This document shows positions 2,380 through 40,105 of a DNA stretch of 64,000 bases, piece by piece. How positions within the stretch are numbered: position 1 is the stretch's first letter; each line of letters starts with the position of its first letter. The notes beneath the pieces were generated by a model. It was given only the letters and a program-made list of their open reading frames with translations, was not told the DNA's origin and did no database searches. This DNA comes from a virus, in IMG/VR virus record IMGVR_UViG_3300042898_002521, positions 1-64,000 of that record; one strand, written 5' to 3'. The translations under genes were made by a program, and so were the position numbers.

Positions 2380-2450
2380 TGTGACCTACCTCACATAAAT
2401 AAGTGAGAATTGTTATCGGGTTTGGCAGATACCGCGATACTCTTTAAAGA
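2380..2450 (+). promoter_or_regulatory. early promoter 1: CRP-type box + TTGTTATCGGGTTTGG + -10 TACTCT
   Basis: box 2380-2395; TTGTT at 2410; -10 at 2438. Confidence 0.7.
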
Positions 2451-2500
2451 GTTAAGCAATACCGCTTAGCGAGAGTCACTCTAAGAGATAGGGAAACACT

Positions 2501-2833
2501 ATGAGTGAGAACACTATCGAACGCGCCGAGTTGCGCGCGTTTCTGCAAGGGCTAGGGAATAAGTTCTTTAGCGTAACTTACATCAAGCGCAAGACTGGCG
2601 AGGTGGCAACAATGACTGCCACGAACGCATACGGCAAGTTTCTTGCTGGCGGTACTCCTGCCTATGACGCTGAGGCAAAGGGACTTTATGTTCTACTTTC
2701 AACTAAGGCGGTTGCCATTGGCAAAGCTAAGGTTGACGCTGGCGAAACGGATAAGGTTCAAGGTATCCGTTCAGTAGGGCTTGAGGGCGTAATCACCGTC
2801 AAGTGTGACGGCACTCTCTACACCGTAGTCTAG
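2501..2833 (+). CDS. hypothetical early protein (possible SH3/WYL-like barrel)
   Basis: ORF track, RBS; FSVTYIKRKTGE..MTAT pattern. Confidence 0.75.
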   Translation: MSENTIERAELRAFLQGLGNKFFSVTYIKRKTGEVATMTATNAYGKFLAGGTPAYDAEAKGLYVLLSTKAVAIGKAKVDAGETDKVQGIRSVGLEGVITVKCDGTLYTVV

Positions 2834-2908
2834 GTGACTAGCCTCGACTCTATCTCTCGGGATAGAGTCGGGGTGGGCTACCTAGCCCCAATAACGAAAG
2901 GGAAAGTT

Positions 2909-3082
2909 ATGTTTGTAAACGGGTTCACCCTTTTACTCTGCCTAGTGTCTTTCATAGGTGGATACGGATACCGCGTGTTGGTTGTTAATTCACGCGAGTA
3001 TTACGATCAGCAACAACGCCAGCGACTACTGGCAAGTGACACGCCAATTCACGACAAACTATCTGAGGAGTGGGACTTCTAA
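2909..3082 (+). CDS. small membrane protein
   Basis: start re-assigned to ATG 2909 after AAAGGGA; N-terminal hydrophobic helix. Confidence 0.6.
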   Translation: MFVNGFTLLLCLVSFIGGYGYRVLVVNSREYYDQQQRQRLLASDTPIHDKLSEEWDF

Positions 3083-3246
3083 TGACTTACTACCGCAAAA
3101 TGACAGTAGTTCCAACACGCGCTGGAATTATGTACCAATGCTGTAACTGCGCGTTATCACTCTCGCCAGAGGAGGCAGATCAGCACCAAGAGGCTGACTG
3201 CCTAGCCTTGCAAGAGTTAGTGGATGCCGTAAGCGATCCACGATAA
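3082..3246 (+). CDS. hypothetical protein, 54 aa (CxxC)
   Basis: manual ORF MTYYRKMTVV...; TAATG coupling and GAGGAG RBS. Confidence 0.6.
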   Translation: MTYYRKMTVVPTRAGIMYQCCNCALSLSPEEADQHQEADCLALQELVDAVSDPR

Positions 3247-3251
3247 CCAAC

Positions 3252-3290
3252 TGGATAGCCAGCCCGACTTCCCTGCGGGTTGGCTATCCA
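3252..3290 (+). terminator. hairpin after early operon 1
   Basis: TGGATAGCCAGCCCG / CGGGTTGGCTATCCA inverted repeat. Confidence 0.6.
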
Positions 3291-3349
3291 CAGGTTATCC
3301 CCAAGCTGTGGATAAAGTTTTCCCCAGCCTGTGGATAACCTGTGGAAAA
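3284..3349. promoter_or_regulatory. array of six DnaA-box-like 9-mers
   Basis: CTATCCACA 3284, TTATCCCCA 3295, TGTGGATAA 3307, TTTTCCCCA 3318, TGTGGATAA 3330, TGTGGAAAA 3341; 11-12 bp period. Confidence 0.75.
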
Positions 3350-3422
3350 GTTTGTGTTGGCCGCCTTTGAGGGGGCCAATCGTCAGCTTTAAAGCTGACT
3401 CGGCCGAAGGCCGACACAAACA
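3350..3422. repeat. cloverleaf palindromic element copy A
   Basis: GTTTGTG...CACAAAC arms enclosing three hairpins incl. GTCAGCTTTAAAGCTGAC. Confidence 0.85.
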
Positions 3423-3430
3423 ACGGGGAG

Positions 3431-3491
3431 TGTGACGAGCGTCACATAAATTGTTATCGGGTTTGGTAGGAATGGGCTTATTCTAGAAACA
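3431..3491 (+). promoter_or_regulatory. early promoter 2: CRP-type box + conserved block + -10 TATTCT
   Basis: box 3431-3446; TTGTT 3451; -10 3479. Confidence 0.7.
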
Positions 3492-3524
3492 GTTGAGAAC
3501 CCGCTCAGCTAAAGAGAGGAAACT

Positions 3525-4043
3525 ATGTCTGAAATGACTAAAGTTGTTGCGTTAGCCATACTTGCTAATGACAACGGCAGGAAAGAAACAGCAATACCCC
3601 GCTTTACTGACCAAGTGAAGCGTGTTGCAAGGTTTAGCGAAGTCTTGGCTTCACTTGACCATAACTACACAGGTAAGTTTGATGTTAAGTCTGCATCTGC
3701 ACTAGCCGACATTCGTATCCGAGATGCGGTACTCCGCACCCTTTACGACTTGAAGCAAGAGGGTAACCTTGAACGGCTTACTAACTACCGCTTAACGCTT
3801 GAAACTTGGGCATCTAAGACAAGCGGTACTGCCCGTCTTGCTATCTTGGCACTTTGGGCAGGTTCGTATTGGCTCGAGGGTAATGATGCGCCAATTGAAG
3901 CCGTCCTTGAAACTGAGGACTTTGGCGAATACAGCCTTTGGCAACTGCTGGACATAGCCAAACGGCACAATGTCCCGTCCTTCGTTTGGGAGAACTCACT
4001 CAAGGAAACTCCCATTAACAAGTGTTTGCAGGGTGCGGGTTAG
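3525..4043 (+). CDS. DUF4192-like protein
   Basis: IRIRDAVL...ALWAGSYWLEGNDA...YSLWQLL resembles the actinobacterial DUF4192 C-terminal region. Confidence 0.6.
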   Translation: MSEMTKVVALAILANDNGRKETAIPRFTDQVKRVARFSEVLASLDHNYTGKFDVKSASALADIRIRDAVLRTLYDLKQEGNLERLTNYRLTLETWASKTSGTARLAILALWAGSYWLEGNDAPIEAVLETEDFGEYSLWQLLDIAKRHNVPSFVWENSLKETPINKCLQGAG

Positions 4044-4060
4044 CCCCGCAAGCAATAAGC

Positions 4061-4088
4061 CAAGCCAGCCCCTACGGGGGCTGGCTTG
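4061..4088 (+). terminator. GC-rich hairpin
   Basis: CAAGCCAGCCCC-TACG-GGGGCTGGCTTG. Confidence 0.65.
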
Positions 4089-4100
4089 TCGCTTGAAATT

Positions 4101-4173
4101 TGTTTGTGTTGGCGGCTTCAAGGCCGCCGCAGCAGCTGCAAGCTTAATCGGGCTTTAAAGCCCGACACAAACA
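4101..4173. repeat. cloverleaf palindromic element copy B
   Basis: TGTTTGTG...CACAAACA with internal GGCGGC-TTCAAG-GCCGCC and TCGGGCTTTAAAGCCCGA. Confidence 0.85.
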
Positions 4174-4182
4174 TCGGCCTAA

Positions 4183-4253
4183 TGTGGCGTAGATCACATA
4201 AATAAATGAGAGTTGTTATCGGGTTTGGTAAATCCCATGAGACTATAGAAACA
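4183..4253 (+). promoter_or_regulatory. early promoter 3: CRP-type box (1 mismatch) + conserved block + -10 GACTAT
   Basis: TGTGGcgtagaTCACA 4183-4198; TTGTT 4213; -10 4241. Confidence 0.65.
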
Positions 4254-4324
4254 GTTAAGCAACGGCTGGCGCGAGAGATTCTCACGTATTCAGGGGTTAA
4301 CGAGAGATAAGGGGTGATTGCCTT

Positions 4325-5341
4325 ATGGCACACGACTTAGAGATGAACGCCAATGGCGACGTCGCATTTGCACTGCGTGGCGCGCCTGCATGGCATGGTC
4401 TGGCTCAACACATCTTCGATGAAGATGAACACGTCACGACCTCGCAAATGTTGGATAGCGCACTGCTGTCTAACTGGGACGTCCGACTAGAGGACGTAAT
4501 CCTGCCCGAGGGTTACACCACGAAATCACCTAGTTTCATGGTGGTTCGGAACGACGTGCTCAACAACAACACGCCCGACGTGTTGGCTGTCGTTGGTGAT
4601 CGTTATCACACCTACCAGAATGAGGATTTATTCGCATTCGGAGATAACCTGCTCGACGGTGGAGGTTACTGGGAGTCTGCTGGTGCAATTCGCAACGGGC
4701 GCACAGTGTTCGGAAGCCTTAAGCTTGGCAAAGACATTGTGATTGACCCTGAGGGTATTGGTGACAAAACCGACACCTACCTACTGGTTACCACAAGCCA
4801 CGACGGATCGAGTGCAATTCAGGCAATGACTACGCCAGTACGGGTAGTTTGCCAGAATACGCTTAACATGGCTCTTGGCTATGGCACTAAGCAATCTTTC
4901 AAAGTTCGCCACACAGCGACTGCGCAAGATCGTGTGTCACAGGCTCGCGAGGCTCTTGGAATCTCGTTTGCCTACCTTGACCAATTCGAGGCCGAGGCCA
5001 ATGCGCTATTCCAGTCGGCTATCACTGACAAGCAATTTGGTGAAATCATCGAATCGCTGTATCCGACACCAGATCGCGCAACTGCTGGTAAAGCAGTTCT
5101 CACCAAGTACGACGATAAAGTCGACACTATGTGGGAATTGTGGCGTGGCCCTACCCAACTGGGTATCAAAGGCACAGGTTGGGGCGCGATGAATGCACTA
5201 ACCGAACGTGTCGATTACTACCGACTAGGGCGCAAGGGTACTAACGCTGGTATTCTCGCCAGTGCTAGTGGGTTCGACGCTCAAGTGAACGCCGAGAAGT
5301 CGCGCATTCGCAAGGCAGTGCTCGAGACTGCTGGTCTGTAA
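4325..5341 (+). CDS. DUF932/DUF945 phage-plasmid protein (TIGR03299-like)
   Basis: MAHDLE...PAWHGL; YLLVTTSHDGS; TPVRVVCQNTL; VRHT motifs. Confidence 0.85.
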   Translation: MAHDLEMNANGDVAFALRGAPAWHGLAQHIFDEDEHVTTSQMLDSALLSNWDVRLEDVILPEGYTTKSPSFMVVRNDVLNNNTPDVLAVVGDRYHTYQNEDLFAFGDNLLDGGGYWESAGAIRNGRTVFGSLKLGKDIVIDPEGIGDKTDTYLLVTTSHDGSSAIQAMTTPVRVVCQNTLNMALGYGTKQSFKVRHTATAQDRVSQAREALGISFAYLDQFEAEANALFQSAITDKQFGEIIESLYPTPDRATAGKAVLTKYDDKVDTMWELWRGPTQLGIKGTGWGAMNALTERVDYYRLGRKGTNAGILASASGFDAQVNAEKSRIRKAVLETAGL

Positions 5342-5344
5342 ACA

Positions 5345-5374
5345 ATAGTGGGGCAGGGCAACCTGCCCCACTAT
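5345..5374 (+). terminator. hairpin with GCAA tetraloop
   Basis: ATAGTGGGGCAGG-GCAA-CCTGCCCCACTAT. Confidence 0.65.
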
Positions 5375-5413
5375 CCACAGCCTGTGGATAAGTTGTGGAT
5401 AACCTGTGGATAA
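5371..5413. promoter_or_regulatory. array of four DnaA boxes
   Basis: CTATCCACA 5371; perfect TGTGGATAA at 5383, 5394, 5405. Confidence 0.8.
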
Positions 5414-5418
5414 CTTTT

Positions 5419-5486
5419 TGTTTGTGTTGGCTGGCTGGCTTCAAGGCCAGCTGCGCCTAATCGGCCTTTAAAGGCCGACACAAACA
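5419..5486. repeat. cloverleaf palindromic element copy C
   Basis: same arms; GCTGGC-TTCAAG-GCCAGC and TCGGCCTTTAAAGGCCGA. Confidence 0.85.
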
Positions 5487-5494
5487 ATCCGCTG

Positions 5495-5555
5495 TGTGAT
5501 CTATCTCACATAAATTGTTCTGGAGTCTGGCAAATACTAGGGCACAATAAGAGAG
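5495..5555 (+). promoter_or_regulatory. early promoter 4: CRP-type box + -10 CACAAT
   Basis: box 5495-5510; TTGTT 5515; -10 5543. Confidence 0.65.
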
Positions 5556-5583
5556 TGAGAGATTAGGAAAGAGAGGTGATTAA

Positions 5584-5790
5584 ATGAGTCACAAAGCAAG
5601 AATACCAATGATAGTAGAGGTTACTTACGGGGGAGATGATTTCCTGACTCTAGACGAGGTAGCAAATCTGATTAACCTGACGGTTACGTCACACGATACA
5701 GATGAGCTCGACGTCTTGAATTATCATTGTGAAGCAACCTACACTGTCGATCAAGGCAGTGTGCGCCCACCTCGGGGAATCAAGGTCTAA
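5584..5790 (+). CDS. hypothetical protein
   Basis: ORF track; GAGGTGA RBS. Confidence 0.7.
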   Translation: MSHKARIPMIVEVTYGGDDFLTLDEVANLINLTVTSHDTDELDVLNYHCEATYTVDQGSVRPPRGIKV

Positions 5791-5824
5791 GTAAGTGTGT
5801 CCTAGGTATGACAAAAACTGCCTA
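5788..5824 (+). repeat. 37-nt intergenic repeat, predicted H-type pseudoknot (copy 1)
   Basis: TGTC/GACA stem and TAGGTA/TGCCTA stem. Confidence 0.65.
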
Positions 5825-5854
5825 CCAAAATAGAGGTTAGGAACAGAGGTGATT

Positions 5855-6028
5855 ATGTACAAAACAACTTGTGAGTCTTGCGAGTCTAAACTAACCGTTG
5901 ATGCCAAAACAGATACGGTTTCGTCTGGAGATCAGAAAGACGAGATTTATTACCTGCACGATGTGGGACTAGCGTATGAATGCCCCGTCTGCGGATACGA
6001 GTCAGGCTTAGTGTTAGACTCTATGTAA
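5855..6028 (+). CDS. zinc-ribbon protein, 57 aa
   Basis: manual ORF MYKTTCESC...ECPVCG; GAGGTGA RBS. Confidence 0.7.
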   Translation: MYKTTCESCESKLTVDAKTDTVSSGDQKDEIYYLHDVGLAYECPVCGYESGLVLDSM

Positions 6029-6062
6029 GTAAGCGTGTCCTGGGTATGACAAAAACTGCCCA
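6026..6062 (+). repeat. 37-nt intergenic repeat, predicted pseudoknot (copy 2)
   Basis: TGGGTA/TGCCCA, compensatory change relative to copy 1. Confidence 0.65.
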
Positions 6063-6091
6063 AATACCTAACTAGAGATGAGGAAAACAAA

Positions 6092-6607
6092 ATGGGTATG
6101 GATGTAATCGGTAAAGCCCCTGCGAACGAAACGGGGGAGTACTTTCGCAATAATGTTTGGTACTGGAAACCACTTTGGAACTACTGCGAGGTAGTTGCAC
6201 CAGAACTAACCAAGTCTGTTAGTGGATACACTAATGACGGTGACGGCTTGCAAGCCAAGGAGTCAGAGTTGTTAGCAAGACTGTTACTCAATGAAATTGA
6301 GTCAGGGCGTACTGTTTCTTACGAGGCAGAGTACCGCAAGGAACAGTCAGAACTACCGTTGGTAGACTGCAAGTTGTGCCACGCAACAGGTATTCGTGGG
6401 GCAGATAGTCCTAACGGTATTGACCAATCCGACAAGGAACTAACAGAACTACAACAATCCTTGTATGGTCGCACCTACGGGTGGTGCAACGGCTGTGATG
6501 GGGCAGGTAACAAGCCTCATTTTGGCACGCAGTACCCATTCTCGGTAGAGAACGTAAAGGAGTTTGCGGAGTTTCTGCAATACTCAGGTGGGTTCTCTAT
6601 CTGCTAA
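6092..6607 (+). CDS. hypothetical phage protein with DnaJ-like CxxCxxxG pairs
   Basis: YFRNNVWYWKPLW; CKLCHATG, CNGCDGAG. Confidence 0.8.
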   Translation: MGMDVIGKAPANETGEYFRNNVWYWKPLWNYCEVVAPELTKSVSGYTNDGDGLQAKESELLARLLLNEIESGRTVSYEAEYRKEQSELPLVDCKLCHATGIRGADSPNGIDQSDKELTELQQSLYGRTYGWCNGCDGAGNKPHFGTQYPFSVENVKEFAEFLQYSGGFSIC

Positions 6608-6636
6608 GCCTACGCGTTACCTAATCTCCGCGTAGT

Positions 6637-6683
6637 GAGTGGCTACCAGTCCTGAGAGGCTGGTAGCCACTCTGCTTTTTTTT
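6637..6683 (+). terminator. intrinsic terminator
   Basis: GAGTGGCTACCAG...CTGGTAGCCACTC followed by T-run. Confidence 0.8.
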
Positions 6684-6755
6684 GTTTGTGTCGGCGTCGA
6701 GGCCGAAACAGCAGCTTTAAGCTGCAAAATTGGGCTTTAAAGCCCAACACAAACA
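6683..6755. repeat. cloverleaf palindromic element copy D
   Basis: TCGGC/GCCGA, GCAGC-TTTAA-GCTGC, TTGGGCTTTAAAGCCCAA inside the same arms. Confidence 0.85.
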
Positions 6756-6761
6756 TCGCAG

Positions 6762-6822
6762 TGTGAGGTAGATCACATAAATTGTTATGGGCTTTGGTAG
6801 AAATGACCTTACTATTTAGAGA
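6762..6822 (+). promoter_or_regulatory. early promoter 5: CRP-type box + -10 TACTAT
   Basis: box 6762-6777; TTGTT 6782; -10 6810. Confidence 0.7.
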
Positions 6823-6859
6823 GTGAGAGAAATACTTTCACTAGAGAGAGGTATCAACC

Positions 6860-7036
6860 GTGAGTAGTTGCCCACGTTGTATTACAGGCATAATGCCTGA
6901 CGCACCCGCCTTGTCACGCACAGATAACAAGACTCGTATCTGTTCAGCGTGTGGGTTATTAGAGGGAATTGAGCAGTTGCTTGATTGCCTGACACCACAG
7001 TCCCAATGGGGCATTACCGTTAATCAGGGGGTGTAG
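6860..7036 (+). CDS. small zinc-finger protein, 58 aa
   Basis: manual ORF, GTG start after GAGAGG; CPRC...ALSRTDNKTRICSACG. Confidence 0.7.
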   Translation: MSSCPRCITGIMPDAPALSRTDNKTRICSACGLLEGIEQLLDCLTPQSQWGITVNQGV

Positions 7037-7038
7037 GT

Positions 7039-7251
7039 ATGGATACATCAAACCTAACCACCGAAGCCGAACACGAGCGCGACTCTGGCTTTGAGACGTT
7101 TACAGTCCGTGCCAAACTTACTATCTGGCACACAGATACAGTCCAAGCCAAAAGTATCGAGGAGGCTTGGAAGCAAGTAGATGAGTGGGTAGCCGAGGAC
7201 TTTACCGAGGACTCGGACTGCTCTAGAAGTTGGGAGATAACCGTATGTTAA
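7039..7251 (+). CDS. hypothetical protein
   Basis: ORF track; VQAKSIEEA motif. Confidence 0.7.
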   Translation: MDTSNLTTEAEHERDSGFETFTVRAKLTIWHTDTVQAKSIEEAWKQVDEWVAEDFTEDSDCSRSWEITVC

Positions 7252-7460
7252 TGAACGCAGTAGTATGCCAAAATCAGTATCGGCTTACCAAGCAAAGTTT
7301 CCAAGAGTTAATTGAGGATCAACGGGAACACGAATACGTCGTAACTGACGAAGTCTGGGAAAGGGTTGCGGGCGAAATACTTGGTCGTATGGACAATTTC
7401 GTAGAGAACCTACTAACAGAACTAGTACACGACGTAATAGACGGAGATTACGACGAATAA
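7245..7460 (+). CDS. acidic hypothetical protein
   Basis: start re-assigned to ATG 7245 (or 7251). Confidence 0.65.
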   Translation: MLMNAVVCQNQYRLTKQSFQELIEDQREHEYVVTDEVWERVAGEILGRMDNFVENLLTELVHDVIDGDYDE

Positions 7461-7465
7461 CAATC

Positions 7466-7589
7466 TTGGTTAGGGGTAACAGAGTAATCTGCAATAAAGA
7501 ACACCCAGTCCTGTCATCGAGCAGGTACGGCTAGTACCGAGCAGACTCACAGTCACGGAAGTGGCACGGCTCTCTCTACCCCTAACCAA
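7466..7589 (+). ncRNA. candidate structured RNA, solo member of the AC/CUC stem family
   Basis: 13-bp closing stem TTGGTTAGGGGTA/TACCCCTAACCAA, AC/CTC internal loop, inner helices incl. GTCAC-GGAA-GTGGC. Confidence 0.65.
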
Positions 7590-7610
7590 CCTATTAAGGA
7601 GGAAAACGCT

Positions 7611-7787
7611 GTGGACATCAGCAAACTGTTCGAAATAGTACCAAAACTGGCAGATGAACTTGTAGAACTGCATAATGCGACAGGCATTGAGTTAGAACTG
7701 TGGGATACCGCGTATGCCCTAGTCAAGGAGTTCTACCACACAGAGGAAGTGGTACAGATCATCATCAGAGACAAGATAGTTAAGTAA
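7611..7787 (+). CDS. hypothetical protein, 58 aa
   Basis: manual ORF, AAGGAGG RBS + GTG. Confidence 0.7.
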   Translation: MDISKLFEIVPKLADELVELHNATGIELELWDTAYALVKEFYHTEEVVQIIIRDKIVK

Positions 7788-7794
7788 GAAACCA

Positions 7795-7834
7795 CCCCGA
7801 GGTTGCCGAACTTGGTAGCCTCGGGGCTTTTTTT
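7795..7834 (+). terminator. intrinsic terminator
   Basis: CCCCGAGG...CCTCGGGG + T-run. Confidence 0.8.
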
Positions 7835-7929
7835 GTTTGTGTTGACCCACCCACCCTAAGCCTTTAAAGGCTGTCCCTTAATGAATTCAGCTTTTAAAAG
7901 CTGAATTGGCTTTAAAGCCAACACAAACA
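7834..7929. repeat. cloverleaf palindromic element copy E (long)
   Basis: three TTTAAA-centred palindromes inside TGTTTGTG/CACAAACA. Confidence 0.85.
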
Positions 7930-7930
7930 A

Positions 7931-7946
7931 TGTGACCAAAGTCACA
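7931..7946. promoter_or_regulatory. CRP-type box
   Basis: TGTGAccaaagTCACA. Confidence 0.65.
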
Positions 7947-8423
7947 CCGCTTAAACGGCGTGTCGGCTTGACAGAGAGAGAGGAGAGTGATAGCTGGAGA
8001 GAGCCTAACAAGCTTGGTAGCCACCCCCGATTTGACAGCTAGGCTACTGCTGTGATATGGGACAAGCCTGACCGCTTGCGTGACCAGATCAGGAGACTAT
8101 CTGCCAGTCCTGTTATGTGATAAGAGATAACAGGCTTGAGAGAGTGAGAGAGTGATAACAGGCTAGTTACTAAAGTTGTTCATAGGTGGTTCAAGTGACC
8201 TGAAGTGTATTCAATCCTCTCTCTCTATCTCTATTAGTATTTGATAGCCAATTCAGGAAACCCCCCGATCTTTATTAGATTAGGTGTTGGGACACGCCCC
8301 GAAAGCTTTGAGACTCACCCCTAGCCTAAATCCTCCACCGCCACCAGATACACCGCCAAAAATAGTTTGAGAAAACTATTGACTTTTGACCCCTATGTGT
8401 GGTATGGGATTAGTCTAAATAAA

Positions 8424-8439
8424 TGTGACGAGGATCACA
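8424..8439. promoter_or_regulatory. CRP-type box upstream of the AAA+ operon
   Basis: TGTGAcgaggaTCACA. Confidence 0.65.
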
Positions 8440-8534
8440 CTAAATCTTTTGATAATAATTATGTAATTTCACCCTTTACTGGTACGGTCTGTGTATTGGA
8501 TAAATAAAAGCTTTATGAAAGGAAGCAATCCACT

Positions 8535-9971
8535 ATGACAATCGCACTCTACGTTGAGTCCCTGTCCGAGACCATTGGTGACAATGGCGAGGCAGGTCTT
8601 GACCAAACTATTATCGTGCCAAACTACACCGTTGGCGCAGTCCAGTTATTCCACCGCACCAGTACGGGTAAGCGTGGTCGTTCCGAGGCTTGGACACTAA
8701 CGCCTCTATCTGATCTACCTAATACCCGTGTCATTAAGAACCCTGTTGCTATCCGTCTCACCGACAATGACCACTTTGCTATTCAAGGTGGCAAGGTAAC
8801 TACTTTGGGATACAAGACCACCACCGCCTCCGATCAACTTACCAAGCTTGGTGGCGATTACACTCTTAACCACTTTGATCTAGTATCAGACTTGGTATCA
8901 CGTTTCGAGAACGCCGATAATAGCCTTGCTATCTACTTGACCGACTCTCGTTACAAGGACACCTCAATCGAGTTTCCTCCTCTAGTGCCTAACCGTGCCT
9001 TTGGTAATAGTCCTGTTAGCACTTCGATCAACCCGACAATTTCCAACGTGGCAGTCCCTAACCAGCCTGTTACACCTCGCCACACCACCACACCAAGCTT
9101 GGTAATGGAATTGGCTAGTGTGCCTGACATTAAATGGGCAAAGCAATACATCAACCGCAAGGTCGTAGGTGACGTTAGTGATTTTGATATCTTTGACGTT
9201 GCTATGCGTAATGACGAGAACGTGCTTATTACTGGTCACGCTGGTTCTGGTAAGACTTCCTCGGTTATGGCTTACGCCTCGGCTCGCGGATACCGTTACT
9301 ACAACTTCTCTTGCTCGGCTGGCACGGATACCAAGAAACTATTTGGTGGATACAACCCAAGCCCAGACGGTCACTTCCATTGGCAAGACGGGGCAATAAC
9401 AGACTTGGTACGCAACGGAGGAGTCCTGCTTATCGGTGAGATTACCTTTATGCCTGAACGTACCGCCTCGGAATTGTATTCTCTATTAGATTACCGCCGT
9501 GAAATCCAACTAACGGATAAAGACGGGGAGGTTGTCAAGGCTCACCCTGATCTGCTCATTATTGCTGACGGTAATCTTGGCTATCGTGGTACGCGCGAAC
9601 TATCCCAAGCTTTCAACGATAGGTTCACACACCACCTCGACTTCCCGTATGACCCAGACATTGAGGGTAAGCTAATCAAGAGTAAGGCAATCTTGGAAAT
9701 GGCTAATTCATTACGAGACCGTTTCGAGGAGGAGGAAATCCAGACCCCGATCTCGACTCGCTCACTTGTCGCTCTAATGGGTAACATTAACAGTCTTGGT
9801 TTGGACTACGGTATCTACGCCTACCTCAACTTATTCCCAATGCGCGAGCAAGCTAGTGTCAAGTTAGTTATTGACACCTACCGCTACAACATTGAGGAGG
9901 AACTAGGTTTGGTTCACTCTGCACCTGCCGAGCCTGTTATGGAGGTGCTTAATAATGGTAATGCCAACTAA
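8535..9971 (+). CDS. MoxR/CbbQ-NirQ-NorQ-type AAA+ ATPase with N-terminal extension
   Basis: Walker A GHAGSGKT, WQDG motif, Walker B LLIGE (variant), AFNDRF arginine finger, ISTR. Confidence 0.85.
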   Translation: MTIALYVESLSETIGDNGEAGLDQTIIVPNYTVGAVQLFHRTSTGKRGRSEAWTLTPLSDLPNTRVIKNPVAIRLTDNDHFAIQGGKVTTLGYKTTTASDQLTKLGGDYTLNHFDLVSDLVSRFENADNSLAIYLTDSRYKDTSIEFPPLVPNRAFGNSPVSTSINPTISNVAVPNQPVTPRHTTTPSLVMELASVPDIKWAKQYINRKVVGDVSDFDIFDVAMRNDENVLITGHAGSGKTSSVMAYASARGYRYYNFSCSAGTDTKKLFGGYNPSPDGHFHWQDGAITDLVRNGGVLLIGEITFMPERTASELYSLLDYRREIQLTDKDGEVVKAHPDLLIIADGNLGYRGTRELSQAFNDRFTHHLDFPYDPDIEGKLIKSKAILEMANSLRDRFEEEEIQTPISTRSLVALMGNINSLGLDYGIYAYLNLFPMREQASVKLVIDTYRYNIEEELGLVHSAPAEPVMEVLNNGNAN

Positions 9972-11820
9972 GAAACCTGCTAAGTCTGCCGATACTGGCA
10001 ACCTGTACCAAGACTGGTATGACTACAACAGCACCAACTCTAGCGAGGGTCTATCCCAGATCGAGCGTGAGGAACTCAAGGATTACCTTGTGGCTAAACA
10101 GGCTAAGAAGCTTGCTAGGTTTCAGGCTATCGCTGGTGTGTACCAGACTGCGGATAGTGTGCTTACCAAAGCTAGTATTACCGTTACTGCTGGTGACTTT
10201 AGTAACCTAGAGTCAATGGGTGAAGCACCTGCGTTCAATGACGGCAAGACTATCTATCTCAACACAAACGTCTTAGCCGAGATTGACGATAACAGTCTCA
10301 TTAGCCTTAACGGTATCAACTACCACGAAGTTGCTCATATCCTGTGGTCACCGCGAGGCAACTCCGAGTTTGGGCGCAAGGTTACTAAAGGTGGATACCA
10401 AACCTCTTTCAATATCCTTGAGGACTTGCGTATCGAAACTCTTATGACCGCGCGTTTCCCAAGCACTACCCTGTCACTTACCCAGTCTGTTTTGACCTAC
10501 ATTATGGATAACCCAGACCCAAGTGACTCGTTTCCTCTAATCCGAGGTCGGCGTTACTTGCCTATCGAGGTGCGCCAACTATCTGCTGATCTCTATGTAG
10601 GTCGGCACGGCTCAACTCACGCTAACAATGTCGCTCGTATCGTAGATGAATACCGACTACTTACTTACCCAAGTGATTATGAACGTGGTTACGATCTCAT
10701 TGTTGAGTTTCATAATCTGCTCAAGCTTGCTGACCCAAAGAATAAGACCGAGGGACAATGTGGCTCACGCCCAATGCTCAAGTCTGGCAGACCTGAAAGT
10801 AACGATAAGCAAAGCAATATTGCTAATCGCGCTAAGGGTATGGACAAGAAAGCCGAGGATATCCCACCCAACGACAAGTCAGGTGCAGGTGCAGGTGACG
10901 AGGGTGAGTCCCAAGAATATGACCCACTTCAAGAACGTACCGAAATGGATACCGAGTTTGCTAACGTAGTGCGCGAGGCTATCAAAACCATTATGAAGTC
11001 CAAGCAAGTCAAGACCGAGGCTCGACAACTACGTTCTGCTATCCGTGAGTCTGACCGTGCAGGTCGTACAGACCTCAAGGCAACCTCCGATCTACTCCCA
11101 GTAGATAACGTGTACCGCGTGGCAAGCAAAGCTTTCGCACAGGAACTTAGCAAACTGCGTATTGACAGCGACCCACATTGGGATATTGAGAAACCTGTTG
11201 GTCGGCTCAATATCAACCGTGTTATGAATATGGATATTAACGATATCAACACGGTCTTTGACGAGTGGCGTGAGGGGCGTGACGAGTTTAATATCGAAGC
11301 CGTTATTATGTGCGACACATCAGGCTCTATGGGCAACGTAATCAAGGAGGTCTCTCAATCTATGTGGGCGATCAAACGTGCGCTGGAGGAAATTGACGGC
11401 AAGGTTACGGTCATTGGCTTTAGTGACAAGACCAAGCTTGTTTATGGAAGCAACGAACGTGCCACTAGCCAATACCGATTTTGGTATGACGGTGGAGGTA
11501 CTGACCCACTTGACGCTTTACTTGACGCGGAAGCAATACTTGAGTCCTCTCGGCGCAAGACTAAGTTGTTATTCGTAATCACAGACGGGGAGTGGTCACG
11601 GTCTGACGATTGTGACTCTACTATTAAGCGTATTAACAATATTGACGGCACTATTAGTCAGATTGTATTCATTAGTAGTAGTGAATACATTATGGAACAG
11701 ACCGTGACGGACAGGGAAGCCACAATGAAGCGTTACCGTCATCACGCTCACGCCATTGAGTTAGTCTCTAAGCCTAATGAACTTGTTAGTGTTGCCCGTA
11801 ACATCTTACGGAGTCTCTAA
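9955..11820 (+). CDS. vWA-domain protein with N-terminal HExxH metallopeptidase-like domain
   Basis: HEVAH, FNILED; MIDAS DTSGSM, GGGT, ITDG. Confidence 0.85.
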   Translation: MVMPTKKPAKSADTGNLYQDWYDYNSTNSSEGLSQIEREELKDYLVAKQAKKLARFQAIAGVYQTADSVLTKASITVTAGDFSNLESMGEAPAFNDGKTIYLNTNVLAEIDDNSLISLNGINYHEVAHILWSPRGNSEFGRKVTKGGYQTSFNILEDLRIETLMTARFPSTTLSLTQSVLTYIMDNPDPSDSFPLIRGRRYLPIEVRQLSADLYVGRHGSTHANNVARIVDEYRLLTYPSDYERGYDLIVEFHNLLKLADPKNKTEGQCGSRPMLKSGRPESNDKQSNIANRAKGMDKKAEDIPPNDKSGAGAGDEGESQEYDPLQERTEMDTEFANVVREAIKTIMKSKQVKTEARQLRSAIRESDRAGRTDLKATSDLLPVDNVYRVASKAFAQELSKLRIDSDPHWDIEKPVGRLNINRVMNMDINDINTVFDEWREGRDEFNIEAVIMCDTSGSMGNVIKEVSQSMWAIKRALEEIDGKVTVIGFSDKTKLVYGSNERATSQYRFWYDGGGTDPLDALLDAEAILESSRRKTKLLFVITDGEWSRSDDCDSTIKRINNIDGTISQIVFISSSEYIMEQTVTDREATMKRYRHHAHAIELVSKPNELVSVARNILRSL

Positions 11821-12560
11821 TGACTTGTGGCATAGGCGTTAAACCGAGTCGTGAAATCTCGGCAAGGACTTCCATAATAAGCACTTACTTCCTTTCAGCT
11901 TTAGAAGTACCTGCGCTTATGCCACTTACTAAACTTAGTACGCCCAACTCCCATTTACGAACGGAACGCCTGTCTGAACGCGCTATGCGTAAGAGTGACT
12001 GTGGTTCACTATTAGAACTTGGGACTCTGGGCGTACTAACAAGCTTAGTAGGCGCAACGTACAACCTGCGTTTGCATATTGCAACAATGACCGTGCCTCT
12101 GCGCCTACTAACTAACTTGGTATCAACAACGGTATCTATCCGAACCACAGAGAACACGCTACGACAGGTTGTCAGGGTTGGTAGTGCTAGATCGCTCTCT
12201 GTTGATACCAAACCCTTTAACCACGCACGTTCAGGAGTATCTTGCCTGTGTCTGGTAAGTAAAGGTCGTGGTAACTACGTTCCGCTTTGCTTATCTATGA
12301 GGTGTTTCCCTCAAATTGGAAACCGTGTTAGACGAAGCGAGCATAATAGGAGTCTCAACTTACGACCTTTACCTCGCGTGGTTAATCCCATTACTACTGG
12401 TGAGAGTGACGATACAACTACTGGTCTGTTCCAAGATGTCCTAAAGCTTACCCAACTTAGGTTGTGGTCTGCTTGTGACCGAGAGAACCACCGAACGGTT
12501 TATCCTCCGCTCTCACCAGTAATAATGCTTATCCCAACACAAACTTTTGCAGGTGCATAA
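11820..12560 (+). CDS. open frame of atypical composition overlying an RNA structure array
   Basis: 246 codons, TAATG overlaps at both ends; rich in T/L/S/R/V, no recognisable domain. Confidence 0.45.
   Translation: MTCGIGVKPSREISARTSIISTYFLSALEVPALMPLTKLSTPNSHLRTERLSERAMRKSDCGSLLELGTLGVLTSLVGATYNLRLHIATMTVPLRLLTNLVSTTVSIRTTENTLRQVVRVGSARSLSVDTKPFNHARSGVSCLCLVSKGRGNYVPLCLSMRCFPQIGNRVRRSEHNRSLNLRPLPRVVNPITTGESDDTTTGLFQDVLKLTQLRLWSACDRENHRTVYPPLSPVIMLIPTQTFAGA
11827..12526 (+). ncRNA. array of six stem-closed structured RNA domains
   Basis: 11827-11925, 11935-12039, 12045-12111, 12117-12211, 12217-12385, 12390-12526; 10-19 bp closing stems, 4-9 nt spacers; AC/CTC junction in five. Confidence 0.75.
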
Positions 12561-12769
12561 TGGCTCTAATACATTCAAGCGGATTAGTTATTACAGAACG
12601 GTCAGAACATCTACCAGAATATGACGGTGACTCTAAGTATGTCGTATGGAACTTATCCGAGGCAGAGCCGAAGGCAAGCTTCACCGCTAGTTATCTACCA
12701 ACTTTGATTAGATATCTTGATATTAACTACACTATTGCTAATAAATACAAACCCGAGAGAGGTATCTGA
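12560..12769 (+). CDS. hypothetical protein
   Basis: ORF track; coupled. Confidence 0.65.
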   Translation: MALIHSSGLVITERSEHLPEYDGDSKYVVWNLSEAEPKASFTASYLPTLIRYLDINYTIANKYKPERGI

Positions 12770-12981
12770 TGACCGAACCAGAACAACCAAAACCACCCCG
12801 ACCCGACTACGAAGTTGCGATCTTAGGTACGCAAGACGGGAATAACATCACATACGAGATGAAAGTCTTTGCTGATGACCCTGCTCACGCGAGCGAGCAA
12901 GGGTTCGAGTGGGCGCAACACCATACAGACGATTGGGCAACCGCAACATACCGTATCAACAAGATCAAGTATTACAACTAA
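12769..12981 (+). CDS. hypothetical protein
   Basis: ORF track; GAGAGG RBS. Confidence 0.7.
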   Translation: MTEPEQPKPPRPDYEVAILGTQDGNNITYEMKVFADDPAHASEQGFEWAQHHTDDWATATYRINKIKYYN

Positions 12982-13020
12982 TAAGTTTATTAGTATTAAC
13001 TACTACAAGAAAGAATAGAA

Positions 13021-13179
13021 ATGGAATATCAAATAACACAAGTAATTACTTACTGGGTACACGCCGAGACAGCTCAGGAAGCTCTCGACAAGTGGAACGC
13101 TAACCCCCGAACAGGCGTGACACAATGGCAAGACGGGGATATTGAACTATCTGATGAACACGTTGAACTAAATGGATAA
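13021..13179 (+). CDS. hypothetical protein, 52 aa
   Basis: manual ORF MEYQITQVITYWVHAETAQEAL. Confidence 0.55.
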   Translation: MEYQITQVITYWVHAETAQEALDKWNANPRTGVTQWQDGDIELSDEHVELNG

Positions 13180-13342
13180 GGAAACTAACAAGGAAATGAA
13201 GCCAATACTTCACCCAATAACTATTAAAGACACCCTTTACTACCTAACTTACCGCGAACTATCTGCTCTCTATGCTCAACTTCAATGTGCCGTAGAGGAA
13301 GCTGATGTGCTTGAGTACGTCACAAGAAAGGAACTAAGCTAG
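13172..13342 (+). CDS. hypothetical protein, 56 aa
   Basis: manual ORF filling the operon gap. Confidence 0.5.
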   Translation: MDKETNKEMKPILHPITIKDTLYYLTYRELSALYAQLQCAVEEADVLEYVTRKELS

Positions 13343-13344
13343 TT

Positions 13345-13584
13345 ATGCTGTACCGAGTTGCGCTAGGAATAGTGCTTAAAGACTTACGGATTAAACAGGG
13401 TTGGACTTTGCGAGAGTTATCTACCAAAGCTCTTATGTCTCTAGGCTACCTATCCGAGATAGAAAGAGGAGTCAAAGAGGTGTCCAGCGACCTTATGTTT
13501 GGACTATGTGAAGCGTTAGACTCTAACGTGCCTGACGTATTAGATCAAGTATCAACCCTAATGAGAGAGAGAGTAACAGTATGA
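13345..13584 (+). CDS. XRE HTH regulator, ClgR-like
   Basis: TLRELS..ALMSLGYLSEIERGVKEVSS..LCEAL closely matches actinobacterial ClgR. Confidence 0.8.
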   Translation: MLYRVALGIVLKDLRIKQGWTLRELSTKALMSLGYLSEIERGVKEVSSDLMFGLCEALDSNVPDVLDQVSTLMRERVTV

Positions 13585-13850
13585 GTAACAACTTAAGAAT
13601 TAGAGGCTCGGTCACAATCTCAACGCCTCAACACAAACTAATTGTGCAAGATATCTTAGACTTCTTATCTAGTTTAGAAAAGCTTGGCGTACCTATCACA
13701 GCAGAAATCCCTGATGGTTTCCTGCACTTCGAGTGGTTCAGCAAAAACGTAGACGTTATCCAATGTGGCGAACACCTTGTAGATGAAGCTGACAAGTTTG
13801 ATTTTGTGATTAACGCCCACGAATGTGAGAAAGAGAGTAATACCGATTAG
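13581..13850 (+). CDS. hypothetical protein
   Basis: ORF track; ATGA overlap. Confidence 0.7.
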   Translation: MSNNLRIRGSVTISTPQHKLIVQDILDFLSSLEKLGVPITAEIPDGFLHFEWFSKNVDVIQCGEHLVDEADKFDFVINAHECEKESNTD

Positions 13851-14005
13851 TAAGAGAAACTTATTTGGTTGGTGTGGTGGCGCAGGTGCTACCCATACTG
13901 ATTGCCGAGTATCATTTACATCAAGCCTGACGGAGAAAACCTACACTTGCGAGTGTGAGTGTCATAAATAATTATGGTAATGTGTACCAAAGAGAGAGAG
14001 AGAGA

Positions 14006-14326
14006 ATGGCAACTAGCCCCGAAATGAAACAGTTTGTAATAGATGTAGCAGACATTATTACTGAATGTAGTAACCTGCTTATCTCAAAGCAAAACGATTA
14101 TGGCCCTCTAAACATAGCGAACGCCCCTGGCGGAGCATTAAATGGTTTAAGAGTCCGTATCTTTGATAAAGTATCTCGCATTAACAATTTAATAGATGAA
14201 AACAAAGACCCAAAGCACGAGTCGCTGAGGGACAGCTTCCTAGACTTAGCCAACTACGGCATTATTGCTTTAATGGTTATTGACGGAGTATGGCCTAAAC
14301 TAGAAAACGGAGAGAACAATGGCTAA
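14006..14326 (+). CDS. DUF1599 / nucleotide modification-associated domain 1 protein
   Basis: KQNDYG...VRIFDKVSRINNL...ESLRDSFLDLANY; start re-assigned to 14006. Confidence 0.75.
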   Translation: MATSPEMKQFVIDVADIITECSNLLISKQNDYGPLNIANAPGGALNGLRVRIFDKVSRINNLIDENKDPKHESLRDSFLDLANYGIIALMVIDGVWPKLENGENNG

Positions 14327-14591
14327 AAAAGATAAGAAGAAAAAGAGTGATAACATCACCATTGAGAAAGTAAGCCTTGAGTTTATTCTTAAGCTTAATA
14401 ACGACAACCCTTTAGTTGAGTTTTTTAACACGTTACCTGATGAAGCAAAGCAGGAAATACTAAAGGGAACTATTTACAGCTCTTTAATAAACTCAAAGGC
14501 TATGCACCTATTAAACGCTGACAACAGTTGGGCAGAACTTAGTCTTGTCCCACTTGATACCTGCACCTGTCCACCAGAGGAGGAGAAATAA
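14319..14591 (+). CDS. hypothetical protein
   Basis: ORF track; GGAGAG RBS. Confidence 0.7.
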   Translation: MAKKDKKKKSDNITIEKVSLEFILKLNNDNPLVEFFNTLPDEAKQEILKGTIYSSLINSKAMHLLNADNSWAELSLVPLDTCTCPPEEEK

Positions 14592-14797
14592 TGAGAACGG
14601 CACTGTGGATAATTGCGTTTGCCCAGATGTATAACATTGTAGAGGCTTGGGTCTGGGCAATACATTGGAGACTCAAAGGAAAGAAAAAGTTTGAGGAGCG
14701 AATGAAAGACCGAGATCGTTCAACGGATTTAGAAAGTTTATTGGCTCTTTACAGCAACGACATTGACAAGCTTGAGAAGAGAAAAAATGGAAAGTAA
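14591..14797 (+). CDS. small membrane protein
   Basis: N-terminal hydrophobic segment; GAGGAG RBS. Confidence 0.65.
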   Translation: MRTALWIIAFAQMYNIVEAWVWAIHWRLKGKKKFEERMKDRDRSTDLESLLALYSNDIDKLEKRKNGK

Positions 14798-15143
14798 TAC
14801 TTTGTTCTGTATCTTTTGTAGTGCTGACTTGGGAGAGGAAGCCACGCATTGTGCGTCTTGCTCTGAATACAAAGGTGTTATGACCTACGAGGACATAGTA
14901 AAACACTATCCTGAATTGGCTAAGGAACTTGTTGAGTCTAATGATCTTGAGGAATACTTTGAGTGGTTAAACACAGGGTTTACTAACAAGTGGATTACCC
15001 CACCGTTTTGTATGACTCACGACGGAGACCCATACCTTACCGAGCAAGAGAGTAATGATTGGGAGGAGGGCGGAGACCCTTGCGCTCACGTTGTTAAGTT
15101 AGCTTTAGAAACCGATTACTACAAGGAGAACCCAAATGGGTAA
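14787..15143 (+). CDS. zinc-ribbon hypothetical protein
   Basis: CIFC...CASC; C-x-THDG...EGGDPC. Confidence 0.7.
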   Translation: MESNTLFCIFCSADLGEEATHCASCSEYKGVMTYEDIVKHYPELAKELVESNDLEEYFEWLNTGFTNKWITPPFCMTHDGDPYLTEQESNDWEEGGDPCAHVVKLALETDYYKENPNG

Positions 15144-15273
15144 GCACCACGATAAAATATTAGAAGCATTAGAAGTCCGTAAGCGGAACGTGCCTAACCG
15201 TAGTGGGTACAACACACCTGGGTCTATGAATAAGAAAAAAACTGGGTATGCGGGAAAGGCTAAGAAACGATAA
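15136..15273 (+). CDS. small basic protein, 45 aa
   Basis: manual ORF MGKHHDKILEAL...; AAGGAG RBS; coupled to next gene. Confidence 0.6.
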   Translation: MGKHHDKILEALEVRKRNVPNRSGYNTPGSMNKKKTGYAGKAKKR

Positions 15274-15491
15274 TGGCTAACAAGCACGTTGAGACTCCTT
15301 GCTATTACACAGGAGAGATAGATTTAGATACTGCCGAGGTCTGGCATTATCCAGAGTCTAGTAAAGTAACTACTAAATGCCCTGCTTGCAGTAACATAGT
15401 AGCAATCAACCAAGTTAATAAGAGACTTCGTAAGCACAACGGAATTAGCATAGCTCCAAACGAGAGAGACTTAATTTATAGCTTCGAATAA
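15273..15491 (+). CDS. hypothetical protein (CPAC)
   Basis: ORF track; last gene of plus-strand block. Confidence 0.65.
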   Translation: MANKHVETPCYYTGEIDLDTAEVWHYPESSKVTTKCPACSNIVAINQVNKRLRKHNGISIAPNERDLIYSFE

Positions 15492-15618
15492 TATAAAATA
15501 GACCAGGAACTGCCACCTCTCTCCTAATCGGGAACGGGTGGCTTTTTCTTGTTTAATAATTAGCTTATGTTCTTCGTACCCCTCAGGCGCAGCTGGAAGG
15601 GGAGACTTGGCATAAGAA

Positions 15619-28861: not shown

Positions 28862-29404
28862 TCAGGGTGAAGTTAACTTATCGTACACTTCTTTTTCATA
28901 TTCAAAATCATGCTTATTCATTACAATACGAGCTAATCCATAGGAATCTGCTGCGTTATCGTCAGTAAAATCAACATCCCATTTTTTGTAAACCGCTAGT
29001 AACATCTGGCTTTTACTTATTCCTGTGCCTTTTCCAGTCACGTATTTCTTTAGGCTAGTTGGAGGTACCACTAAAGGGAACCGCGCTTGGGGAACCGCTG
29101 GGTACAAGTCATACATTAGTAACCTAAGCATTCCACCTAATTCACCTGCCATGTTAGCCATCTGTGATCCAAATGCATAGCCTTCCATGCAAGTTTTTTG
29201 CACATCATAACTAGATAAAAAATCTTCAGTATAGTTACGCAAGTTTGAAAGTCTTTCTACACCAGTTCCCTCTGGCTTATACACCTCAGTGTAATAGTTA
29301 AGATTTTTATCAATAGCGGTTATAGCAAACCCGCTATACGACTGGTCAATACCTACGGCTACTGCTCCTCGCAGGTTTGGCTTACCAAAAATTTTCTTAG
29401 CCAC
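28862..29404 (-). CDS. ruvC: RuvC-like Holliday junction resolvase
   Basis: GIDQS, MEG, PTSLKKYVTGKG..SK, DNAADS. Confidence 0.8.
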   Translation of the reverse strand: MAKKIFGKPNLRGAVAVGIDQSYSGFAITAIDKNLNYYTEVYKPEGTGVERLSNLRNYTEDFLSSYDVQKTCMEGYAFGSQMANMAGELGGMLRLLMYDLYPAVPQARFPLVVPPTSLKKYVTGKGTGISKSQMLLAVYKKWDVDFTDDNAADSYGLARIVMNKHDFEYEKEVYDKLTSP

Positions 29405-31419: not shown

Positions 31420-31730
31420 TCCTGGAGCTTTTGGCGAAGCTCCAGGAAATCGTTTTCATCTAACATGACATAGTTCTCGCCATTAAGATGGAAACCTAGG
31501 ACAGGCATCCTACCGTCAAGGATAGCTTCCTTAACAATTTTTTCCAGGACCCCCGCTTTAACGGTTACCTGTTGCTTGCCTGTCCACTTATGTTCTATAA
31601 GTAGGTCGCGAGACCTGACATCACCTTTGCGGCTCCAAAAAGCTCCACTGGCAGCTACGGTACTACCGCCAACTGCTTTAGCTAGTCTGTTCTCGTGCTT
31701 CTTAGACTGCTTTTGCCCTTCAGAGCGCAC
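31398..31730 (-). CDS. PD-(D/E)XK Holliday-junction-resolvase-like nuclease
   Basis: SGA...KGDV...LIEHK. Confidence 0.7.
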   Translation of the reverse strand: MRSEGQKQSKKHENRLAKAVGGSTVAASGAFWSRKGDVRSRDLLIEHKWTGKQQVTVKAGVLEKIVKEAILDGRMPVLGFHLNGENYVMLDENDFLELRQKLQECSCETP

Positions 31731-40029: not shown

Positions 40030-40101
40030 CTCCCCGCCGTGGACTTGAACCACGAACATTTCGATTAACAGTCGAACGCTCTGCCATTGAGCTAGCAGGG
40101 A
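40030..40101 (-). tRNA. tRNA-Asn (GTT)
   Basis: TCCCTGC acceptor, TAGCTCAATGGCAGAGC D arm, CT-GTT-AA loop, GGTTCAAGTCC T arm. Confidence 0.92.
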
Positions 40102-40105
40102 TTAG

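Follow-up and report, generated by a model that had tools for sequence, protein, structure and literature searches.

The early regions of large phages hold their fastest-changing genes, which serve host takeover and anti-defence, and how such genes are separated in transcription and exchanged is poorly understood outside T4. Two described systems resemble the locus reported here. The stoperators of Cluster A mycobacteriophages such as L5 and Bxb1, which are temperate, are 13-bp sites found in 20-30 copies per genome, mostly in short intergenic gaps; they are bound by the known immunity repressor so as to block elongation, are asymmetric and mostly oriented with transcription, have a consensus that changes between lineages along with the cognate repressor and lie largely outside promoters (PMC6550527). 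In T4-type phages, small non-essential genes of unknown function follow one another in chains, each with a host-type promoter and a stem-loop terminator of its own; these repeated composites are the PeSLs (promoter-early stem-loops), in which the insertions, deletions and replacements that distinguish relatives have their ends, and exchange between neighbouring PeSLs was shown by mini-circle PCR (polymerase chain reaction) (PMC2839356; PMC4122927). Here we analyze a row of five palindromic elements in the early region of a myovirus. They lie in the window, i.e., the first 64 kb of the 87,548-base IMG/VR record IMGVR_UViG_3300042898_002521, which is 91% complete. The reading that we prefer, tentatively, is that they are stoperator-like transcription boundaries, in which a short word occurs twice, in opposite orientations, on either side of a spacer that is prone to form hairpins.

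An earlier, sequence-only reading had described five cloverleaf palindromes at this locus, and all five were present where it had placed them, i.e., at 3350-3421, 4102-4172, 5420-5485, 6684-6754 and 7835-7928 (assigned to neither strand); one extra T/A at each end gives lengths of 73, 73, 68, 73 and 96 nt. Element 1 has arms GTTTGTGTTGG / CCGACACAAAC around three hairpins. Element 2 has the same arms, with hairpins centred on TTCAAG and TTTAAA, and its middle hairpin is decayed relative to that of the close relative L005. Element 4 has arms GTTTGTGTCGG / CCAACACAAAC, and in element 5, the last of the array, the left arm GTTTGTGTTGA is followed by CCCACCCACCC. The stem variants quoted earlier (TCGGGC/GCCCGA and others) and the TTTAAA or TTCAAG centres were likewise found in the sequence. 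The pattern GTTTGTG-N40-70-CACAAAC had 4 matches against 0.02 expected, a number reached in none of 100 shuffles; the fifth copy, with its longer gap, falls outside this pattern. No other copy was found anywhere in the 87,548 bases of the record. When each copy was folded as single-stranded DNA, z was -5.2 to -6.7 and none of 200 dinucleotide shuffles folded as well, the predicted fold being an outer stem around one to three hairpins.

An autonomous, oriented word at the borders of early units

Relatives were found through the DUF932 protein of the second cassette, which led to 80 related loci. Scanning 2.9 million viral contigs for the pattern gave 39 stretches with the arms, which belong to ~35 contigs, all of ≤ ~100 kb, and the arm-bearing contigs are related freshwater myoviruses of 90-100 kb. 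One genome from each of 185,579 bacterial species gave 8 scattered matches. The arms therefore belong to one phage clade, and a host repeat was rejected. Repetitive extragenic palindromes and bacterial interspersed mosaic elements (REP/BIME) are repeats of host chromosomes, present in hundreds of copies and associated with a RAYT transposase. Like them, the phage elements are short extragenic palindromes that follow genes and carry a conserved motif at the base of the stem, but the phage family is essentially absent from bacterial genomes and confined to one stretch of the phage genome. We also rejected a repeat of the REP/BIME type or of the miniature inverted-repeat transposable element type on other grounds, i.e., the interiors are unrelated, and the flanks extend the inverted repeat rather than forming direct duplications. 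Altogether 104 distinct elements were collected, 59-126 nt in length (median 81). In five near-complete relatives all 3-5 elements fall within a single stretch of 3.3-4.6 kb, and elements occur only between co-directional units.

The constant part of the elements is CCRACACAAAC on the sense strand (11 nt, or 11-12 nt with a final A). This arm is an autonomous, oriented and lineage-specific word that also occurs singly, a property that the sequence-only reading had missed. Solo words were present outside elements in every genome examined, with ~20 independent copies in 542 kb against ~2 expected, i.e., ~10 times chance (Poisson p ~1e-12), and a reversed-pattern control gave 2 copies in total. 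A Chi-like short word was considered and rejected, since 7-mers occurred at chance level and only the 11-mer was enriched. There are 8-16 copies of the word per genome. Among 18 independent solo words within open reading frames (ORFs), 16 were sense-oriented (CCAAC...AAAC on the mRNA strand; p = 0.0013); the right arm is oriented in the same way.

Two solo words lie in the window. One, CCAACACAAAC on the plus strand at 12534-12544, is near the end of ORF 11820-12560 and sense-oriented, reading in frame as P-T-Q-T. The other is on the minus strand at 17156-17166, in the ribonucleotide reductase gene, where the coding strand again reads CCAACACAAAC, in frame as P-T-Q-T. The latter sits in a loop of the reductase that differs in every relative compared, and it has the appearance of a nucleotide word at a site where the protein can accommodate it.

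The word changes by lineage. Genomes whose arms are GTTTGGG/CCCAAAC have only GGG-type words, whether paired or solo, and GTG genomes have only the GTG type; two further clades carry TTGTTGAGTTGG or TTGYTGGGTTGG at the same borders. There are four word types in the clade (GTG, GGG, TTGTTGAG and TTGYTGGG). A one-base switch, made throughout a lineage at paired and solo sites alike, is inexplicable by pairing and therefore points to a sequence-specific reader; the word, with this natural switch of specificity (GTG versus GGG), could serve as bait for it. In the L007 lineage, each terminator is followed by a sense word only, with no left arm and no palindrome. Together with the solo words, these single-word borders suggest that the constant unit is the oriented word and that the palindrome is an elaboration of it. 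The sequence-only reading had also offered clustered sites for a dimeric protein.

Like stoperators, therefore, the word is short, asymmetric, present in many copies, mostly co-oriented with transcription, variable in consensus between lineages and largely outside promoters. It is this statistical signature, at positions where insulation would be needed, that leads us to a boundary site. There are also differences from stoperators: the word here is 11-12 nt long with 8-16 copies, mostly in inverted pairs around a self-complementary spacer at junctions from terminator to promoter, and the solo copies are often inside genes. Whereas stoperators act in one direction, a block from either side is proposed for the elements.

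As boundary markers, the elements would divide the early region in this clade of freshwater actinobacterial myoviruses into successive transcription units, each complete in itself. Their core in functional terms would be the asymmetric word, placed after the terminator of one unit and before the control region of the next (a DnaA or CRP box, then the promoter), and read by a sequence-specific trans-acting factor, probably a DNA-binding protein. In the window phage, as in most relatives, the word is present a second time in inverted orientation, fused to the T-run of the terminator, so that two copies bracket a spacer of 36-105 bp that is now self-complementary and may extrude hairpins in vivo. 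Factor bound in both orientations would block RNA polymerase arriving from either side and insulate each unit from its neighbour, while a solo sense word within an operon would be a single polar site.

Several observations weigh against such a boundary. No repressor-like family was recognized in the ~70 ORFs scanned. The only clear helix-turn-helix (HTH) protein of the phage, a 79-aa protein of the HTH_3 (XRE-type) family encoded at 13345-13584 in the long early operon, is absent from relatives, and we rejected it as the reader because it had no counterpart in ten related records. Nor were repressor, integrase or partition genes found, or any other hint of lysogeny, whereas the phages that have stoperators are temperate. 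A roadblock needs no self-complementary spacer, which may be a by-product of template switching between close inverted repeats or serve some other function. Three of the five upstream hairpins in the window lack a canonical T-run, so that read-through into the elements is possible. Finally, the orientation bias of the solo words fits a motif acting in RNA equally well, and several words lie at or near start codons.

That last point bears on an alternative that we consider unlikely, in which an RNA-binding protein, nuclease or translational regulator would recognize the word CCAACACAAAC on the mRNA, the left arm would mask it in read-through transcripts, and the elements would be 3'-end structures or processing sites. 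The sense orientation of the solo words, the same three hairpins without a T-run, and the few words that either coincide with a start codon (ATGCCAACACAAAC; in the GGG lineage, ATGCCAACCCAAAC) or precede one by 17-47 nt are all in its favour. So is the position of the left arm: in 33 of 71 oriented elements, a GC-rich hairpin ends 0-6 nt before it, so that the T-run and left arm together form the U-tract of the terminator. However, the right arm lies upstream of its own promoter and usually downstream of a strong terminator, and the pairing within the elements, described next, has the character of DNA.

Pairing within the spacer

Across the family, the outer seven pairs are near-invariant, and the interiors show no relationship from copy to copy. 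Even orthologous copies may have different interiors in genomes with 95% identity in the flanking genes, as element 1 does in the window phage and L005. Three architectures were seen. The cloverleaf of several small perfect palindromes is found only in the window phage, L005 and L081. In the commonest form there is a single long hairpin with 20-40 paired positions. The third (10-13% of elements) has G-tracts on the left and repeats of the GCTCGCT type on the right, and is no better structured than shuffles. The multi-way cloverleaf proposed from the window is thus not a conserved feature, most relatives having one long hairpin, some an unpaired interior and one lineage a single arm. This natural series, i.e., word alone, pair with unpaired spacer, long hairpin and multiple hairpins, offers a way to gauge the contribution of the hairpin. 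Inversion of the spacer between the arms was considered and rejected, because interiors that are asymmetric all point the same way with respect to transcription when the loci are put in one orientation.

The pairing itself is maintained by compensatory change. Within single genomes, both arms change in concert at position 8, from T:A to C:G. At positions 12-21 all four types of Watson-Crick pair are used, and the Watson-Crick fraction is 0.61-0.65, against 0.30-0.32 with shuffled partners and 23-34% when the partners are slid by one position. The paralogous elements 3 and 4 of L016 also differ by compensatory changes, and folding with fixed arms gave z < -3 for 77% of interiors. The earlier observation that stems differ yet stay paired is therefore borne out in the arms, in the interiors, and among paralogues and orthologues. 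It had been taken to mean that symmetry is selected, and here only the maintenance of pairing is secure, as template-switch mutation could perfect close inverted repeats without selection.

Several features bear on whether the pairing acts in DNA or in RNA. G·T and A·C mismatches were equally frequent (34 and 33), i.e., there was no G·T bias. GNRA loops were found in none of 107 element hairpins but in 12 of 47 adjacent terminators (p = 2e-7); the element loops consist of TTAA centres and GAA triloops, and UNCG loops are lacking. Many element hairpins are perfect palindromes through the centre (TTTAAA), and GC content falls from 0.57 at the base of the stem to 0.38 at the centre. Nor was there a 10.5-bp periodicity in the spacing of the arms. 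Taken together, the parity of mismatches, the loop types, the GC gradient and the lack of phasing favour intrastrand pairing of DNA over either an RNA hairpin or two sites bridged on one face of the duplex, and the pairing looks better explained at the level of DNA. Because phasing is lacking and the distance to the neighbouring box is variable (2 to 22 nt in the family, for DnaA or CRP boxes), the element is not a phased activator site.

The same features count against the word being read in mRNA, as does the result that the elements gave no ARAGORN match and no overlap with Rfam, even at E ≤ 1; the suggestion that they encode tRNA-sized RNAs is thus not supported either. Hairpin promoters of the N4 type, which have a 5-7 bp stem and a 3-nt loop and are read by the virion RNA polymerase, were rejected too: the elements are 59-126 nt long, no phage RNA polymerase was seen among the large ORFs, and the promoters look host-type.

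DNA-type hairpins with GC-rich bases and AT-rich centres, free of phasing constraint and restricted to borders between co-directional units, would suit a purely structural role, in which a cruciform buffers or senses supercoiling between tandem units, or a gyrase-type site wraps DNA as at REP/BIME, the arms being alike through concerted evolution only. We regard this as quite improbable. It leaves the solo words, their orientation and the lineage-wide switch at solo sites unexplained, and neither the 10-13% of interiors that are structured no more than shuffles nor the L007 lineage without a palindrome fits it.

Two sets of observations on the interiors and on more distant loci are recorded here. 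The segment CCCACCCACCC, at 7845-7856 after the left arm of the last element, is the same in nearly all lineages, and some lineages (elements of L010, L023, L096 and L120) have G-tracts of the GGGTGGG type at that place on the sense strand in other elements; both are quadruplex-capable. The more distant relatives L041, L046, L056, L062, L063 and L067 have no word, and short GC-rich palindromes (GGGCCGGGCC type) occupy the same borders, beside TTGACA promoters; tRNA genes often adjoin the DUF932 gene there.

Control regions around the elements

Each border has the same order, i.e., a GC-rich hairpin, a DnaA-box array (at elements 1 and 3 only), the element, a CRP box, a promoter segment that is repeated among borders, a leader and then genes; the downstream promoters look host-type. 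The hairpin that closes the first early unit (3252-3290, plus strand; inverted repeat I13) has no adjacent T-run. A terminator hairpin at 4061-4088 (plus strand) lies ahead of element 2, and a hairpin with a GCAA loop at 5348-5371 (plus strand) marks the end of the DUF932 unit. The terminator scan found intrinsic terminators at 6637-6672 and 7795-7826 (both plus strand), with T-runs continuous with the left arms of elements 4 and 5, respectively. The elements had been placed between terminators and promoters; a GC-rich hairpin does precede each of them, but in a strict scan a canonical T-run was present in only two of the five, the other three hairpins either having no adjacent T-run or being separated from the element by DnaA boxes.

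On the promoter side, the CRP-type box reported earlier was found without exception, TGTGN8CACA beginning 2-10 nt past every right arm. The CRP/GlxR-type box TGTGA-N6-TCACA after element 1 is at 3431-3446 (either strand; direct repeat D7), and the equivalent boxes after elements 2-5 are at 4183-4198, 5495-5510, 6762-6777 and 7931-7946. The first early promoter region (2380-2440, plus strand) shares its CRP box and its TTGTTATCGGGTTTGG motif with the promoters after the elements; it has no co-directional unit upstream, and no element.

DnaA boxes are the other recurrent neighbour. In the window, an array of TGTGGATAA and one-mismatch variants in both orientations adjoins element 1 (3284-3349, either strand), and three TGTGGATAA boxes at 11-bp spacing adjoin element 3 (5371-5413, either strand). 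A DnaA box lies within 60 nt of 59% of elements, against a background of one per 1,540 nt, and may be on either side and in either orientation; in the window phage, DnaA boxes are largely replaced by CRP/GlxR-type boxes. In contigs of lake metagenomes, the two array stretches, 3284-3349 and 5371-5413, had 4-6 times the surrounding depth and many loose ends, which suggests that they are common to many other genomes.

A precedent for DnaA boxes among palindromes is the injection stop signal (iss) of T5, a single untranslated block of 1.2 kb in the terminal repeat with 8 fixed DnaA boxes, where a role for DnaA is itself only a proposal (bioRxiv 10.1101/866236). Both loci are non-coding early-region DNA with palindromes or inverted repeats and DnaA boxes, but here there is a small element at each cassette border, and the DnaA boxes are optional, with CRP-type boxes in the window phage. 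It is highly improbable, in our estimation, that the elements serve DnaA-linked replication or entry, i.e., as part of an origin or helicase-loading site, as a single-strand initiation signal for the DnaG-type primase of the phage, or as an entry stop like that of T5. The enrichment of DnaA boxes, the two phased arrays and the T5 precedent would fit, and the replication proteins recognized in the phage, i.e., DnaB, a DnaC-like loader and a DnaG-like primase, include no initiator. However, there are 3-5 copies per genome, one per cassette border, rather than a single locus; the placement of DnaA boxes is indifferent to side and orientation, and the window phage has the CRP-type box in their stead; and three relatives assemble with direct terminal repeats, so that no fixed entering end can be assumed.

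Other sites in these regions also vary. L005 (95% identical) and the window phage differ by the same replacement of ~20 nt at all four cassette promoters (3447-3470, 4209-4232, 5511-5530 and 6778-6800), the segment being TTGTTATCGGGTTTGGTA in the window phage and GTCTAAATnnGTGAGCGA in L005; the difference amounts to a concerted swap of a promoter specificity element. Conserved across relatives are CGCGCTCGGGCGTGTCG before the first promoter (2325-2345), ACGGCGTGTCGGCTTGACA after the last element (7955-7973) and TAGGCTACTGC downstream of the last element (8040-8050). Near-perfect parS sites (TGTTTCACGTGAAAC) occur beside or just ahead of boundary words at L007:4316, L016:5793, L025:5492 and L087:2468. 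The arms themselves were rejected as parS (TGTTTCAC/GTGAAACA compared with TGTTTGTG/CACAAACA), since the inner three bases differ, and the resemblance is taken as coincidence. The control regions thus behave like panels of interchangeable sites, i.e., DnaA, CRP-type and occasional parS-like host sites that swap within the same regions, in phages of abundant lake Actinobacteria.

Possible cassette exchange and gene content

The sequence-only reading had raised recombination or cassette shuffling at the elements. Comparing gene content between elements, as it had proposed, showed that the cassettes at element borders do differ among relatives. Their content and order vary, with family F7 before or after DUF932, and F9, F3 and F4 present, absent or regrouped. 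In one clear case, L106 lacks the F3 cassette that L016 has, and the element at the junction is 97% identical to element 3 of L016, whereas the flanks are ~70% identical. Several homology blocks also start or stop within 15 nt of an arm. Such data could reflect a recombination module, in which break-prone or cruciform palindromes, with the words and the shared promoter and terminator sequence as guides, direct the gain, loss and reordering of cassettes. Variants would be a PeSL-like system, an attC-like system with an unrecognized recombinase, or a programmed hot spot that uses the RecA and RuvC-like resolvase of the phage (both encoded, with a weak Metallophos nuclease match in addition). As an account of the elements, we rate recombination as doubtful, although less so than a word read in mRNA.

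The general evidence for exchange is mixed. In the array regions, ends of high-scoring segment pairs fell in or within 20 nt of an element in 29 of 318 cases, against 11% expected (p = 0.89), i.e., there was no global excess of breakpoints, and gene differences also occur within cassettes where no element is present (in L016, between F7 and F9). The arms, at 11-13 bp, are short for RecA-driven exchange, and oriented solo words inside genes are unexplained by it. The ~70 ORFs scanned included none with an integrase, HUH or transposase domain. A single skip joint (3318 to 5383), seen in metagenome contigs, is unusable, as its support is 21 nt within the repeated DnaA-box arrays. Contigs of four lake metagenomes often end at elements, which is unusable as evidence as well. 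Exchange at the elements is possible rather than demonstrated, the evidence being the L106 and L016 comparison plus anecdotes.

The likeness to PeSLs lies in the repeated composite control regions at cassette borders, with gene content that differs there among relatives; as in PeSLs, small genes (58-338 aa, of unassigned function) are set between terminator hairpins and promoter regions that recur. In PeSLs, however, the promoter and terminator are themselves the repeated unit, with no extra element that has conserved inverted ends and a variable paired centre, and their exchange has been observed directly, in contrast to the single clear case and negative breakpoint test here.

Integron cassettes offer a second comparison. 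The attC site has core sites RYYYAAC (5') and GTTRRRY (3') and forms an imperfect palindrome of ~57-141 bp in which structure rather than sequence is conserved; the integron supplies the tyrosine recombinase IntI, an attI site and a common promoter, and its cassettes are promoterless. The elements share the layout, i.e., short conserved inverted ends, a variable paired centre (59-126 nt, with covariation at positions 12-21 and the z < -3 folding of most interiors noted above) and one site per border, but the likeness is architectural only. The ends here are GTTTGTG/CACAAAC, of which only the GTT and AAC triplets agree with attC, in the opposite order; the elements have neither strand asymmetry nor conserved extrahelical bases; and there is no integrase, attI or common promoter, each cassette here having its own promoter and terminator. 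With several defining features of attC failing, integron-like recombination is not supported. A more specific form, that inverted words and a break-prone palindrome make up a dedicated cassette-exchange site of lytic actinobacterial phages, strikes us as distinctly unlikely. It might work in either of two ways. An unrecognized structure-specific recombinase might read the folded site by the base of its stem, as IntI reads attC, or the phage resolvase or nuclease might cut the extruded hairpin, leaving ends flanked at once by outward-facing words that channel repair into exchange at the borders. If true, phages would have in this site an equivalent of the integron, but with a promoter and a terminator carried by every cassette.

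ORF family scans identified the phage as a myovirus, with tail sheath, major head protein, portal and terminase, and showed that it encodes Pol I as well as ribonucleotide reductase. Its RecA match is ORF 31720-32778 and its RuvC-like resolvase match ORF 28862-29404. ORF 17754-19250 matches a queuine/DpdA-like transglycosylase, which suggests 7-deazaguanine modification of the DNA, and ORF 31096-31419 matches the WhiB family of regulators. The nearest cultured relatives by protein are Streptomyces phages (39-52% identity), and no similar DNA was found in cultured phages. The WhiB protein and these relatives point to an actinobacterial host, probably among freshwater Actinobacteria, and DNA of the phage recurs in lake-water metagenomes. 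Genes run rightward from ~2,500 to 15,500 and leftward elsewhere. The only matches to tRNA or tmRNA (ARAGORN, Rfam) were at 40030-40184, where a tRNA-Asn is followed directly by an 82-nt stretch that exceeds the Rfam tmRNA threshold across the ends of the model.

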